A stretch of 64,000 nucleotides of DNA from Escherichia phage slur16, in the sequence record NC_028248.1. One strand, 5' to 3'. Below, piece after piece: positions 30,704 to 60,092 of the stretch (positions within the stretch are counted from its first letter, which is position 1; every line of letters begins with the position of its first letter). A model generated the notes under the pieces. It worked only from the letters and a program-made list of their open reading frames with translations, was not told where the DNA came from and did not search any database. The position numbers and the translations under genes were made by a program.

Positions 30704-30732
30704 ATTTTACCAAATTTTGTAACAATAGTCAA
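30704..30732 (-). promoter_or_regulatory. sigma70-like promoter with extended -10
   Basis: Minus strand: -35 TTGACT (30732..30727), 17-nt spacer ending in TGG, -10 TAAAAT (30709..30704); 34 nt upstream of the ATG at 30670. Confidence 0.55.
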
Positions 30733-47189: not shown

Positions 47190-49526
47190 TTACCAAAGAT
47201 CTGTTGACATAAAGTTAATATCTTTGTTATTCTCCCACTCAAGTTTTGCATCAAGTATTTTGCTAAACTCACCCTCATCTATTGAAATCGTGATTTTCCC
47301 ATCACTAATCTCTAAAGGTAGCATTTCCATAGTTCTTAATTGAGAAGCAAAACCAGGGCCACCTGGCAACGGAAGAGTACCGCCCGGTAAGGTGTCCAAA
47401 GGATTAACAAATCCGTTACCTCCCGATATGATATCTTTGCGAATCATATCGCTGATAGTATCCAGCTGCTGATTTCTTTCACTTAGTGGGTTGTAACGGT
47501 CATTAAATAATTCCCCGGCGCTTAGTATTGTACCGATAATACCCAGCTTACCGAGCAGACCAACTTTGCCACCAGGTGTCTTGAGGCCACCTCCCCCTTT
47601 TCCTGCCGGAGCGCCACCACCAGATCCTTCTGTAGTAGCGGCACCTGCTACTCCAGCTGCACCCCTTAGAGAGCTAAGGAATTTAAAGGTTTTTACAAGC
47701 ATAGATGCCATGACAAAACCTTTTGTTAGGGCGTTGACGACCAGCATGATGGCAGCAGCAAACCCTGCCCATTTAGCATAGCTAAAGGTGTCATGGAGCT
47801 CTTCAGAATATTCCTTCGTCTTAGCTGTTATGAACCCCCATTTAATCCCCCATTCAAGGAAAAACATGCGGATCTTGACTATAGTGTTGTTCAGTTCACC
47901 AACTACCCAGTTAAGGCCTCTCACAAACCCGCTAACAAAATCACCAGAGGCATCCCACACAAATTGCAGAGTCTCACCAGTGCGGATTAGTGTATAATAG
48001 AACTCTGTTAGTTCGTCAGACCAACGGGTGAACAGTTTCTGACGAGTCAGTTCGATAAAGGTTTTCAGTCTGTTTTCTGCCAGCACGTTAGACTTCTGCA
48101 TTCTTTCATAACCAGCTGCAGATGCCTCGTTCATGTACTTAGCCACATACTTCATGATCTTGGCTGTTTTAACCTCACCTTTCTTCATCATGTCCATGAA
48201 CTGATCCATGGAGAGTTCAGAAAGACCAAAAGCCTCTTTGGTGGCCTTGATAAAAGGTTCGTATGCACCAGGCAATGCTTCAGCAAGTTGTTGCTTCAGT
48301 TCTTCGGACATTACCTGTCCTTTCCCGAGCATCTGTTGGATTGCCATAATACCGCGCTGGTATTTTACCTCATCGGCACCATAAGCAGCAGCATACTGGG
48401 AGTATGCAGAAAACAGCTCATGCACTTCCTGATTTGTCATCTGGTTTTTGGCGTTTACCGACATCTGGGCGTAACCTTGAAGACCAGATTTGAGATCAAA
48501 ACCAAGACGCATAGCCTCTTGCTGGACAAACGCAACCTCACTGTTGGCTTTGTTTGGATCTCCAGTAACAGCAGTAAGAGCAGCACTTGCCCCCTCCATC
48601 ATGTGACCGGATCTGTTAACCGCAGCAAATCCAGAAAAAGCTGTATACGCAGCTGTTGCATTAATAACAGATCTACGTAAGTCTCTCATGGCATCGCCTA
48701 GTGTAAGCGTTTGGCTGGTGGCGCTTTTAAACCCAGACTGCAGCGCTGACAGGTGGGCGTTAAAGGTTGACTTCTTCATCTCCCCGCGAGCAAACCTGGA
48801 CTCTAACTCTGAGTATCCTGGCAAGCTTCCACGGAATCCGGCCCCATACTTGGCAGAAAGTCTTATCGCGGAGTTGTAGAGGTGGGTTCTCCTTGCCTCA
48901 CGATCCGACATAAGCCTATTATCCATACCAGCTTTACTGTCTCTTCTTAGCTGTCTATGATAACGATTCATAGCGGCTGTCTGAGCTTTCACAAGGTTAG
49001 GGTCGGAAGCCACACCACCCATATTAGGGTTACCGGGGATATATTTGAAAGATTTGGCATTAGCCAAAACTCTTGCCTTAGGTGCCTTATAACCACCGTA
49101 AGACACTGGTGCAGATTTGGCAGCCTTTTTGGCCTCTTTAGCTTGCTGCTGGTAGAACTTACGCATCCTAGCCATTTCTGGATTTTTAGCGGTAAGATTA
49201 CCTACAGCTTGTTTACGTCTCGCATTCTCCCTACGTTCTATTGCAGCCCTTACTGCAGCCTCTTTCTTGGCCTGTGCTACGCTCTCTCTGTGCAGTTTAG
49301 CATTTGCCTGAGATTGCTGTCTGGCAACCCTCTGCATTGTCTGCTGGGTTTTAACAGCTACCGCCTGCCATCTACTCATTGGGTTGGCTGAGTTAAAATC
49401 CTCGCCCAGTTTCCTGAACTCCCTCCCAATACTGCGAATTTTCTCTACAGCTTTTTTGTAGGAGGAGTTCTCTATCTCAAAGCCAATCTTGTTGACTGTT
49501 GTGGCAACTATTTTGTTTGTAGCCAT
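47190..49526 (-). CDS. tail tape measure protein
   Basis: 778 aa, Ala/Gln/Lys-rich with long helical segments and a Gly-rich stretch (GAAGVAGAATTEGSGGGAPAGKGGGG); downstream of tube and chaperone-like genes. Confidence 0.6.
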   Translation of the reverse strand: MATNKIVATTVNKIGFEIENSSYKKAVEKIRSIGREFRKLGEDFNSANPMSRWQAVAVKTQQTMQRVARQQSQANAKLHRESVAQAKKEAAVRAAIERRENARRKQAVGNLTAKNPEMARMRKFYQQQAKEAKKAAKSAPVSYGGYKAPKARVLANAKSFKYIPGNPNMGGVASDPNLVKAQTAAMNRYHRQLRRDSKAGMDNRLMSDREARRTHLYNSAIRLSAKYGAGFRGSLPGYSELESRFARGEMKKSTFNAHLSALQSGFKSATSQTLTLGDAMRDLRRSVINATAAYTAFSGFAAVNRSGHMMEGASAALTAVTGDPNKANSEVAFVQQEAMRLGFDLKSGLQGYAQMSVNAKNQMTNQEVHELFSAYSQYAAAYGADEVKYQRGIMAIQQMLGKGQVMSEELKQQLAEALPGAYEPFIKATKEAFGLSELSMDQFMDMMKKGEVKTAKIMKYVAKYMNEASAAGYERMQKSNVLAENRLKTFIELTRQKLFTRWSDELTEFYYTLIRTGETLQFVWDASGDFVSGFVRGLNWVVGELNNTIVKIRMFFLEWGIKWGFITAKTKEYSEELHDTFSYAKWAGFAAAIMLVVNALTKGFVMASMLVKTFKFLSSLRGAAGVAGAATTEGSGGGAPAGKGGGGLKTPGGKVGLLGKLGIIGTILSAGELFNDRYNPLSERNQQLDTISDMIRKDIISGGNGFVNPLDTLPGGTLPLPGGPGFASQLRTMEMLPLEISDGKITISIDEGEFSKILDAKLEWENNKDINFMSTDLW

Positions 49527-49535
49527 GGTTTCCTC

Positions 49536-49575
49536 ATAATAAAAAGGGCCAGATCCCAGAAAAGGAATCCGGCCC
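49536..49575 (-). terminator. hairpin plus U-tract (attenuator/terminator candidate)
   Basis: Imperfect GGGCC...GGCCC hairpin, followed on the minus transcript by UUUUUAUUAUG just before the tape measure RBS. Confidence 0.35.
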
Positions 49576-49580
49576 TTAGA

Positions 49581-49829
49581 TTATCCTCTCCTGCGCTTAG
49601 CTTTCGCAGCAGCTGCGGCAGCCTTCTGCTCCCGCTCCATTTCCCTGTTTTGGACGGTATCTAGGAATTCTTCGATATCAAGATACTCACAGAGCTTCAG
49701 GAAATACGCCATATCTGCAAGATTTAGCGATTCAAAATTTTCCCCTTTGAAATTCTTGAGCACCCTGCACCAAAGAAAGTCGAACCAATTGAGTGAACTG
49801 TTCTTGGCTGCCCACTCACTGGCCCTCAC
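49581..49829 (-). CDS. small protein, possible tail assembly chaperone
   Basis: 82 aa, GTG start; between tube and tape measure genes. Confidence 0.35.
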   Translation of the reverse strand: MRASEWAAKNSSLNWFDFLWCRVLKNFKGENFESLNLADMAYFLKLCEYLDIEEFLDTVQNREMEREQKAAAAAAKAKRRRG

Positions 49830-49840
49830 AACAACCTTGC

Positions 49841-50314
49841 TTATTCCTGCTCTTCCGGAGTCTGATCCAGATTGTTCACCTGCTGAATCATACCCATCTG
49901 CTGTAACATCTCCAGAAGGCTTCCTAAACCGTCTTGTGTGAAAAAACAGCCGTAGTTAACCTCCAGAACCTTACCTGCCAGCTTAATCATCTCCAGCAGA
50001 TGCCCTGCAAACACAACATCCGGGTTAAGCCTATCCACACCATCTACGGTAATATCTTCGAACAAGATTTTAAATAGCTCTTCAATGGAGTTATCATCAA
50101 GTTCTTGGAACAGGTAAGCCAGGGCTGTAGGAAGGACCTCTGCCATATTCTGACCACCTGAGAGAATAGATCCACCGATAGCACCTAGCGGGACAGCCAC
50201 AATCTTACCGATTTTAGGCATGTTTTTCATTGCTTTCATCGGCCCCCAGTGGGTGATCACAAAGTTGTGCCCTGCTAAATCAATCTCTGTTGTAGGTCTA
50301 AAGTTTACAGCCAT
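49841..50314 (-). CDS. putative tail assembly chaperone
   Basis: 157 aa, acidic C-terminus; tube-to-tape-measure position. Confidence 0.4.
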   Translation of the reverse strand: MAVNFRPTTEIDLAGHNFVITHWGPMKAMKNMPKIGKIVAVPLGAIGGSILSGGQNMAEVLPTALAYLFQELDDNSIEELFKILFEDITVDGVDRLNPDVVFAGHLLEMIKLAGKVLEVNYGCFFTQDGLGSLLEMLQQMGMIQQVNNLDQTPEEQE

Positions 50315-50341
50315 TTTATAGCATCCTTATTAGTCATGTTG

Positions 50342-50386
50342 TGCACCATATTTGTGTATTTTACCATGATTATGGTGCATTGTCAA
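50342..50386 (-). promoter_or_regulatory. sigma70-like extended -10 promoter flanked by a 9-bp inverted repeat
   Basis: Minus strand: -35 TTGACA (50386..50381), 17-nt spacer ending in TGG, -10 TAAAAT (50363..50358). Inverted repeat TGCACCATA (50342-50350) / TATGGTGCA (50371-50379) is centred on the -10. Confidence 0.55.
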
Positions 50387-50426
50387 TTTAACCTTTCAAG
50401 CAATTCAAGAACGTGTGTCAAAACCA

Positions 50427-50460
50427 TAAAAGCAAAAAGCCCCACCCGAAGGTGAGGCTT
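50427..50460 (-). terminator. rho-independent terminator candidate
   Basis: AGCCCCACC-cgaa-GGTGAGGCT hairpin with internal bubble, followed on the minus transcript by UUUUUGCUUUU; downstream of the tube gene. Confidence 0.45.
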
Positions 50461-50476
50461 ATGCTAAAGTGTGCCC

Positions 50477-50950
50477 TTAGATAATACCTGCAAGACCTGC
50501 GAGGCCAGTAAGAGCACCAGTGATGTTATCACGGTTGAGCCATGCATCCAGAATACCGATATCCCAGTCCAGCTGACCTACTTCGGTTCCGTAAGTCAGG
50601 TCAGGCTGTTTCTGGATCCAACCAATTGTGGAAATACCAGGGCCCTGGCTACCTTCCAGCAGAACCGGGAAGAATACCAGGCCAGTAATCGATGCCTGTT
50701 TCTGCCAGTCAGAAAGGTAAGCGTTCCATACAGAAGTGTTCTGCAAAGATACAGTCATAACACCAGATTGGTTACGAGACAGGGCAGCAGACATTTCGCC
50801 ATCCACACCAACGTGAGGGTAGATGTTGTCTTCGTTTCTTGAAACAACGATCTTGGTGTCAGCAGCGAAGCCAGTGACACGCTGCTGCATCAGATACAGT
50901 TTGACCTTTTTAGGATCATAAGCATAAGGAGTTAAAATTTGAGTTTCCAT
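50477..50950 (-). CDS. putative tail tube protein
   Basis: 157 aa, immediately downstream of the sheath-like gene and upstream of chaperones and tape measure. Confidence 0.5.
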   Translation of the reverse strand: METQILTPYAYDPKKVKLYLMQQRVTGFAADTKIVVSRNEDNIYPHVGVDGEMSAALSRNQSGVMTVSLQNTSVWNAYLSDWQKQASITGLVFFPVLLEGSQGPGISTIGWIQKQPDLTYGTEVGQLDWDIGILDAWLNRDNITGALTGLAGLAGII

Positions 50951-50960
50951 CTAGTCTTCC

Positions 50961-52337
50961 TTATTCAGTCATTGCAACAGCATTGGTGGATTTAGAACCA
51001 ACTTTGTCCAGAAGGACGTTGATCCGGATACGAACGAAGTGCAGGGCGTTGTTATACACCAGTTCTACTTTCACACCTTCCAGAACACGAGCAGCCAACT
51101 GATTGGTTGGAATCTCTGCACGTTTAGGAACTGTGATGATCGGGTCGTAGAACACATTGTTGTCTTCGTCAAAACCTGTCAGGATCGCACCATTCTTAAT
51201 GCCAGTGTTGATTGGGTTGTTCATCAGGACAGACTTGATAACCGGAAGATCATCATCAGACATCTTCATGCTTAAACCCATGTTGGAGCGACGATGCATG
51301 TACCCAAACATAGATTCTTCAGATCTGAACTTGATCCAGTGTGCAAAACGAATAGCGTCTGCATACTGACCTGAAGCACACTTACCTTCCCAGAAAGCGC
51401 CAACACCGTTAATCATTCTGTAGAAGTTAACGTGGTTTTCCCAAATAGCCATACGCTGAGTTAAAGTCAGAGACGGTGCAATCACACCTGGCATCTGTTT
51501 TAAGTGCAAGCTGTCGCCGTAGGACGGATCGTTGGATGCCATAGCACCTATGATACCACCCTCCGGGAAGTCCTTATCTGCACGAGGATCGTACATGCCA
51601 ACACTGTCATATTGTGCAGCTTTCAGTTTGGTAGCGATGTTACTATCTTTGCCAGTCACATCTTCTGCAGTAGAGTAGACGTGCAGCTTGTAGTTGGCCT
51701 GAGCCCACTTAGCACATGCTTCAATGTCGGTGTGGTCTTCATGGCACAGGAAGTACCAATTGTCCCGCTCAGCATTGATCTTATCAACTACTGTAGAAGG
51801 TTTTTCAGCATTGGCGATATTTTTAATTGTATAGTTACCAGTATGATAACCTACAGTGCAGTCACCAGTGATGGTGATAACACCGTCTTCAGCCGCTACA
51901 GTGATATCGTCCAAGTTATCATCTGCTTCGATTTTAGTCTTCATGGACTCTGCGATCTGAGTTGCAGCTGTCCCACCAGAGATAGGAACTATCAAAGAGG
52001 TATTGTAGCCACCTTTTGCAATAGTCATTACTACATCGGTATCAGCTGCGGCAGCAATACCTTTAAAATCTACAGTGGTTTTTTCTTTGGCCTGTCTGCC
52101 GATCATAACATATTGTGGAGGGAATACACCACCAAAAGCTTTTGCTGCAAACTCATACGCTGCAGAGCCTTGTGCGAAACCATCTTCCACCATCTGATCC
52201 AGCTCCGCATATACGCGAGCTCGCTCAGTAAAGTTGTTGTGGATAGCGATGAACAGGGGAGTTTCGAAACCTACAGTGTCAATAGGTTGGGTTCCGAGGT
52301 TAACTGTAACATCTACCACTTTATCTAAATATGGCAT
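50961..52337 (-). CDS. putative tail sheath protein
   Basis: 458 aa, first gene of the tail block directly upstream of the tube gene; assignment from gene order and size. Confidence 0.45.
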   Translation of the reverse strand: MPYLDKVVDVTVNLGTQPIDTVGFETPLFIAIHNNFTERARVYAELDQMVEDGFAQGSAAYEFAAKAFGGVFPPQYVMIGRQAKEKTTVDFKGIAAAADTDVVMTIAKGGYNTSLIVPISGGTAATQIAESMKTKIEADDNLDDITVAAEDGVITITGDCTVGYHTGNYTIKNIANAEKPSTVVDKINAERDNWYFLCHEDHTDIEACAKWAQANYKLHVYSTAEDVTGKDSNIATKLKAAQYDSVGMYDPRADKDFPEGGIIGAMASNDPSYGDSLHLKQMPGVIAPSLTLTQRMAIWENHVNFYRMINGVGAFWEGKCASGQYADAIRFAHWIKFRSEESMFGYMHRRSNMGLSMKMSDDDLPVIKSVLMNNPINTGIKNGAILTGFDEDNNVFYDPIITVPKRAEIPTNQLAARVLEGVKVELVYNNALHFVRIRINVLLDKVGSKSTNAVAMTE

Positions 52338-60043: not shown

Positions 60044-60092
60044 GTATCTCCGATTACTCTATTCTACCACATCTAATTAAGATTGGCAACAC

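Follow-up and report, generated by a model that had tools for sequence, protein, structure and literature searches.

Probably incidental inverted repeat at P51, a near-consensus sigma-70 promoter ahead of the tail assembly chaperone gene in rV5-like phages

Genes, terminators and promoter at the locus

The window analyzed here is a stretch of 64,000 nucleotides from Escherichia phage slur16 (NC_028248.1), which over the 3 kb compared shows 100% identity to Escherichia phage slur12, an rV5-like myovirus of the genus Vequintavirus. All the features of the locus lie on the minus strand of the window. The sheath gene (50961-52337) is followed by the tail tube gene (50477-50950; Pfam KPP10_Orf10), and this in turn by t052 (50437-50460), a rho-independent terminator formed by AAGCCTCACCTTCGGGTGGGGCTT and a subsequent T-run, with 10 pairs, 6 of them GC, which is also annotated in the records of phages Murica and Gotham. 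The next gene, encoding the tail assembly chaperone (49841-50314), corresponds to ORF 51 of rV5, matches Pfam PF21822 (Phage_TAC_15, 1.6e-23) and carries this annotation in relatives. Further downstream, the list of open reading frames includes a small ORF of the chaperone region (49581-49829), which is separated from the gene for the 778-aa tape measure protein (47190-49526; annotated as such in EdH4, naam, ECML-10 and Murica) by t050, a strong terminator-like hairpin (49544-49577; 14 pairs, 8 GC). In Table S4 of the rV5 study, t052 and t050 are listed at -18.3 and -24.2 kcal/mol, respectively (PMC3606486).

Upstream of the chaperone and tape measure genes, a preliminary description of this DNA had placed an extended -10 promoter overlapped by a perfect 9-bp inverted repeat. 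Both the promoter and the repeat are indeed present at 50342-50386 on the minus strand, in the form TTGACA-ATGCACCATAATCA-TGGTAAAAT-ACACAAA-TATGGTGCA, and the two genes downstream are those named in that description, the chaperone gene being the first one served by this promoter, hereafter P51. The -35 hexamer TTGACA (50386-50381, minus strand) matches the consensus at 6 of 6 positions and is the same in every relative fetched. The 14-nt stretch ATGCACCATAATCA separates it from the extended -10 block TGGTAAAAT (50366-50358, minus strand), which constitutes the core of the rV5 'late' motif TggTAaAAtA and contains a TG (50366-50365, i.e. -15/-14) one base 5' of a -10 hexamer of the TAnnnT type (TAAAAT, 50363-50358). 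The spacer between both hexamers is 17 bp long, and together the hexamers match 11 of 12 consensus positions. In a promoter scan covering 20 kb, this was the best-scoring sigma-70-like site.

According to the geometry of sigma-70 promoters, transcription is predicted to start at an A around position 50351, 7 nt 3' of the -10 hexamer, giving a chaperone mRNA with a 5' leader (50315-50350, minus strand) in which a Shine-Dalgarno sequence, AAGGA, is found at 50328-50324. Folding of the leader RNA from the predicted start revealed no significant structure (-3.9 kcal/mol, z = +0.36).

The hexamers, a spacing within 16-18 bp, the TG, the intergenic position facing a gene and the conservation of the elements are all as expected for the sigma-70 extended -10 type, and support the assignment of the site as a near-consensus promoter of this type, for which recognition by sigma-70 and the start site given above are inferred. 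Regarding its likeness to known promoters, P51 shares with E. coli sigma-70 extended -10 (TGn) promoters the TG at -15/-14, the TAnnnT -10, the 17-bp spacer and the consensus -35. In classic extended -10 promoters the TG makes up for a poor -35, whereas P51 has both the TG and a good -35, so that it is predicted to be a very strong promoter. A literature search for transcript mapping, start-site or binding data retrieved none for any rV5-like phage.

The only point of the promoter description that had to be amended is its rank as the third TTGACA-N14-TGGTAAAAT element. It is the sole exact one in the window, and the count holds only for a looser class, as its siblings read TTGACT-, TTGCGT- and TTGCTT-N14-TGGTAAAAT.

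Prior annotation and the late-promoter class

In the GenBank record of rV5 (DQ832317), the site is annotated as 'Sigma70-type promoter; P51' at 48291..48319 (29 bp). The 45-bp element of rV5 is identical to that of the window and occupies the same place, after terminator t052 and before ORF 51, with no difference at the sequence level. A PhagePromoter prediction appears at the same location in the Gotham record. Kropinski et al. (2013, Virol J 10:76, PMC3606486) included the site as P051 both in Table S4A, among sigma-70 consensus promoters, and in Table S4C, as one of eight 'putative late promoters' defined by the MEME motif TggTAaAAtA, and the sequences published there, TTGACAATGCACCATAATCATGGTAAAAT and TGCACCATAATCATGGTAAAATACACAAATATGGTGC, are exactly those of the window site. 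The entry in Table S4C displays both arms of the repeat, and the passages of that paper devoted to promoters make no comment on an inverted repeat. The promoter itself is, hence, already published and annotated (2013).

The eight late-motif sites of rV5 lie upstream of genes 27-66, and its authors left late regulation open (PMC3606486). The window site contains the exact motif TGGTAAAATA upstream of a structural gene and on the coding strand. Siblings within the window are found at 30704, 36215 and 53880 (exact) and at 60061, 24373 and 47117 (near), all of them on the minus strand and before structural genes. In a search for the block TGGTAAAAT alone, five exact copies were detected in the window, all on the minus strand (13468, 30704, 36215, 50358 and 53880), together with near copies on the same strand at 60061, 24373, 7459, 58386 and 47117. 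Copies with one mismatch at most are enriched (48 vs 21.5 +/- 4.4 in shuffles), and the intergenic ones sit 14 nt after a TTGnnn hexamer. In contrast to the rest of the late-motif class, P51 is alone in having a full TTGACA -35 and an inverted repeat longer than 5 bp around the -10. Beyond a plain -10, the information in the late motif resides in a G at -13 and an A at -6, a feature that hints at specialized recognition.

Geometry, conservation and recurrence of the inverted repeat

The arms of the repeat, their 20-nt spacing and their centring on the -10 hexamer proved to be as first described. Arm 1, TGCACCATA (50371-50379, minus strand, ~-31 to -23), is located in the promoter spacer, between the -35 and the extended -10, as had been proposed, and arm 2, TATGGTGCA (50342-50350, minus strand), corresponds to ~+2 to +10 of the predicted transcript, starting ~1 nt after the predicted start site. 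Complementarity is perfect over 9 + 9 bp, and the dyad centre falls at 50360.5, inside the -10 hexamer. ATGGT is shared by the extended -10 block (cATGGTaaaat) and arm 2 (tATGGTgca), and arm 1 can consequently form the pairing ACCAT/ATGGT with the former as well, across a gap of 4 nt, so the complementarity of the repeat partly re-uses promoter sequence.

Repeats of this size are common in this DNA. Perfect 9-mers with their reverse complement at 30 nt or less gave 15 k-mer hits in the 64-kb window, which correspond to 10 distinct repeats or ~1 per 6 kb, and dinucleotide shuffles produced 8.7 +/- 3.6 such hits, with 6 of 100 shuffles reaching 15. As the shuffles reach similar counts, 9-bp repeats are ordinary here and only the position at a promoter is unusual. 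The chance of finding one centred on a -10 was calculated as ~0.01-0.05, a rough and post hoc value obtained from 10 repeats x 9 promoter-like sites x ~11 allowed centre positions / 64,000.

This low probability of coincidence, together with the perfect dyad centred on the -10 hexamer, is part of what speaks for the repeat as an operator, to which a dimeric protein of phage or host origin would bind through both arms, occluding or activating P51 and timing the expression of the chaperone and the tape measure protein. Late genes placed behind a near-consensus sigma-70 promoter would presumably benefit from early repression, and the rV5 authors' statements on late regulation leave room for it. 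The closest known systems of this kind are the dyad-symmetric operators overlapping promoters, such as lac O1, lambda OR/OL, tetO and the LexA boxes, and the C-repressor half-sites around the -10 of Pe in phage P2. What P51 has in common with them is a pair of matching half-sites, here of 9 bp each, which flank the -10 inside the stretch covered by RNA polymerase.

The spacing, on the other hand, does not agree with the classic geometry for a dimeric repressor or activator that had been attributed to the repeat. The half-site centres, 50375 and 50346, are 29 bp apart, i.e. 2.76 turns at 10.5 bp per turn, so in B-DNA the arms would lie about a quarter turn out of phase and not on one face of the helix. 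In well-studied dimeric operators the half-site centres are ~10-11 or ~21 bp apart, the former being the case of lac O1, lambda OR/OL, tetO and LexA, and the C-repressor half-sites flanking the -10 of Pe in P2 are direct repeats with centres ~22 bp apart. Known dyad operators are furthermore conserved as joint sites and usually recur in the genome, whereas the repeat at P51 has its centres 29 bp apart, a single conserved arm and no second site.

Evidence on joint conservation came from Vequintavirus relatives. Of 116 GenBank Vequintavirus records, 105 have the 45-bp element in identical form, so that the perfect repeat is the majority state (~90% of the sequenced relatives), and the remaining 11 have 1-2 changes. 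Ten of these 11 variants were fetched or typed, along with 3 close relatives from IMG/VR, and all the variation identified (12 of 13 variant genomes: 10 from GenBank and 2 from IMG/VR) is confined to positions 5-8 of arm 1, making this arm the sole variable stretch of the element. Five allele patterns were found at these four adjacent positions: C5T, C6T, C5T+C6T, A7G (8 records) and T8C. The corresponding arm sequences are TGCACCGTA in 8 records, TGCACTATA in HMD-6, TGCATTATA in ECP26, and TGCATCATA and TGCACCACA in the IMG/VR relatives. Arm 2, in contrast, is unchanged in 116 of 116 GenBank records and in the 3 close IMG/VR relatives. Double changes within a pair of the repeat were not observed, all the arm-1 changes being uncompensated, and the outer four bp of each arm (TGCA / TGCA) are invariant.

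The invariance of arm 2 does not single it out. All 116 records share, without a single difference, a 59-nt block (50312-50370, minus strand) that begins with ATCA-TGGTAAAAT, takes in arm 2 and the leader and extends to the ATG, and the next 28 nt of leader after arm 2 are as well conserved as arm 2 itself. As this block is invariant, the eleventh variant record must be changed within the first 16 nt of the element; A147 and PDX, which were fetched as candidates for it, both carry the reference sequence. No change of the -35 hexamer was seen among the 18 relatives fetched or the 105 records in which the whole 45-mer is identical, and one unfetched variant could differ in it. Upstream of ~-37, a stretch of 50 nt contains many substitutions and is replaced altogether in three phages: in HMD-6 and PDX the replaced sequence lies upstream of ~-25 from the -35 hexamer, and A147 has the same truncated match. 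In summary, over the ~85 nt that run from the -35 hexamer to the ATG, the genus varies only at four positions in the middle of the spacer. Such strong constraint on promoter and leader supports a real promoter and, as comparative evidence, speaks well for a function of P51 and its leader. The strictness of the 59-nt block is itself unusual for a leader with no predicted structure, as the neighboring sequence differs by 1-5%.

The sequence found in place of the upstream region in HMD-6 (PQ505080, 73951-75576), and also in PDX and A147, is an insertion of ~1.7 kb between t052 and P51. In HMD-6 it contains a 541-aa ORF, the only match of which is a sub-threshold treble-clef zinc finger (DUF4379, E = 0.003). 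The stop codon of this ORF abuts the -35, and rV5-like homology resumes ~25 nt upstream of the -35. The insertion has the appearance of a mobile gene that entered precisely between terminator and promoter. A separate observation concerns 18 records of 'Campylobacter phage' (MG0656xx, host C. jejuni), which are ~98% identical to E. coli rV5-like phages across the region; A147, the one fetched, is marked UNVERIFIED, and the 'Campylobacter' labels are probably due to mislabelling or contamination in the source records.

A symmetric operator would be expected to constrain both arms, and for this reason variation restricted to arm 1 counts against it. If both arms were equally constrained, the probability that 4-5 independent events all fall on one arm would be ~0.03-0.06, a rough figure. 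Identity among the relatives amounts to 95-99%, which limits the power of the comparative test, and there are no intermediate relatives in which to search for covariation: the chaperones of the phage collection share either 95% identity or more, or less than 60%.

Recurrence was analyzed in the full slur12 genome (136,898 bp), assembled from the window and two fetched pieces. Besides P51, the half-site has 3 exact copies in this genome vs ~1 expected; two of them fall in coding sequence, the third in a part of the early region that lacks annotation. These copies are unpaired and lie away from promoters, and P51 is the only paired site in the 136,898 bp. Thus, the recurrence of the half-site that an operator usually shows was not borne out. 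In eight sibling promoters, which were also checked, repeats around the -10 do not exceed 5 bp. Beyond this genome, the exact paired pattern is absent from the Escherichia genomes of GTDB, where it was detected in 108 taxonomically scattered bacterial contigs vs ~60 expected (a rough estimate that assumes uniform composition), a number close to chance. It was also found in 6 contigs of IMG/VR, the sole related one being rV5-like, so that no recurrence is seen in other phages.

We also compared the site by eye with the consensus sequences of the host regulators CRP, FNR, IHF and Fur, and no convincing match was found. For Fur, CATAATCAT resembles part of the box, with only ~10 of 19 positions matching.

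Overall, of the proposed candidate operator on a promoter, the promoter is supported and the operator is not: an inverted repeat is there, and its arms are unequally constrained, spaced off-phase and restricted to a single promoter. We consider the operator reading unlikely, and it keeps a small share of the probability on account of the perfect repeat in the majority of relatives, the invariant outer TGCA of each arm and the question of how late transcription is timed. A shade less probable is a variant based on the same invariant TGCA, in which a so far undescribed phage or host factor would contact the outer part of both arms and keep P51 silent until late in infection. If this were true, the arm-1 substitutions would be tuning or escape variants instead of neutral drift.

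Readings of the repeat at the RNA level and the meaning of P51

The repeat could alternatively act as RNA, as read-through of t052 would produce a transcript with a 9-bp stem and a 20-nt loop, which might affect processing or stability of the polycistronic RNA. For the 141-nt intergenic RNA, both the minimum-energy and the centroid structure include the hairpin, the 38-nt unit has a folding energy of -12.5 kcal/mol (z = -3.6), and 3 of the 4 variable positions keep pairing through G.U wobbles in the sense RNA. The z-score is circular, however, given that the repeat was the reason for selecting this segment, and 6 of the 9 possible arm-1 transitions give wobbles anyway, so that 3 of 4 is roughly what chance predicts. 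Moreover, there are no compensatory double changes, T8C breaks a pair, and transcripts started at P51 contain arm 2 only. A search of Rfam over 49400-51000 gave only two sub-threshold chance matches and thus no family for the hairpin. This role is very improbable, also in view of the more distant relatives, which have a different and genuinely covarying structure at this place.

These relatives, distant Vequintavirinae of Seunavirus, Certrevirus and similar genera (loci L006-L015), have no sigma-70 promoter in the spacer between the tube and chaperone genes. At locus positions ~1420-1505, a nested hairpin is conserved among them (CGTGWG-CCAC-loop-GTGG-CCTTT..-CWCACG), accompanied by a mini-hairpin in whose loop the Shine-Dalgarno AGGA is displayed (ACGC-AGGA-GCGT vs ACAC-AGGA-GTGT). 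Compensatory double changes affect 5 of the 15 predicted pairs of these hairpins, which may constitute an attenuator or a translation-control element. The lack of a promoter in these spacers fits the reported clustering of Certrevirus sigma-70-like promoters in early regions, and makes the arrangement of terminator plus P51 specific to the rV5 genus.

No better supported is a role for arm 2 alone, with arm 1 irrelevant, in which TATGGT, at ~+2 to +7, would serve as a -10-like element where the sigma-70 holoenzyme pauses, as it does near the lambda PR' promoter, and the paused enzyme could load a factor that helps it to read through t050 ahead of the tape measure gene. Both A2 and T6, the key positions of a -10 hexamer, are present in TATGGT, which belongs to an initial transcribed region invariant in 116 of 116 records, and a strong terminator-like hairpin does separate the chaperone ORFs from the tape measure gene; but a 4/6 match including A2 and T6 is expected by chance in about one of every ten initial transcribed regions (our estimate), the sibling late promoters have no consistent -10-like element at the same position, the whole leader is as invariant as arm 2, and rV5-like phages are not known to encode a Q-like antiterminator, all of which makes such a pause highly doubtful.

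We therefore favor, as the most probable account, that the site is the known promoter P51 with an inverted repeat that is incidental, since the related phages do not maintain the repeat, nothing indicates that it is selected as a whole, it does not recur and its spacing is unfavorable. The absence of a bound regulator is what we infer from these data. According to this account, the host RNA polymerase holoenzyme would restart transcription at P51, just past the terminator that ends the sheath/tube transcript, and the resulting mRNA would direct the synthesis of the tail assembly chaperone and, by read-through of t050, of the tape measure protein. The repeat would be a feature of the ancestral sequence not maintained by selection, with arm 1 located in the middle of the spacer, where a sigma-70 promoter is least constrained, and arm 2 amounting to no more than the initial 9 nt of a transcribed leader that is conserved throughout. 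Transcripts from P51 must read through t050 for the tape measure gene to be expressed, and this read-through may set the ratio of chaperone to tape measure protein.

Taken as it is, the finding matters little, as it recovers a promoter that was predicted and annotated in 2013. Its useful by-product is the conservation map, and the natural arm-1 variants, JES2013 and ECP26 among them, are available for tests of promoter strength. The broader question is what silences P51 early, given that a near-consensus sigma-70 promoter precedes late structural genes; a repressor would provide the answer. If a regulator were bound at P51, it would bear on how rV5-like phages schedule their late genes using host-type promoters, and a factor recognizing the TGCA ends of both arms would offer a first handle on the timing of late transcription in rV5-like phages without late factors of the T4 type.
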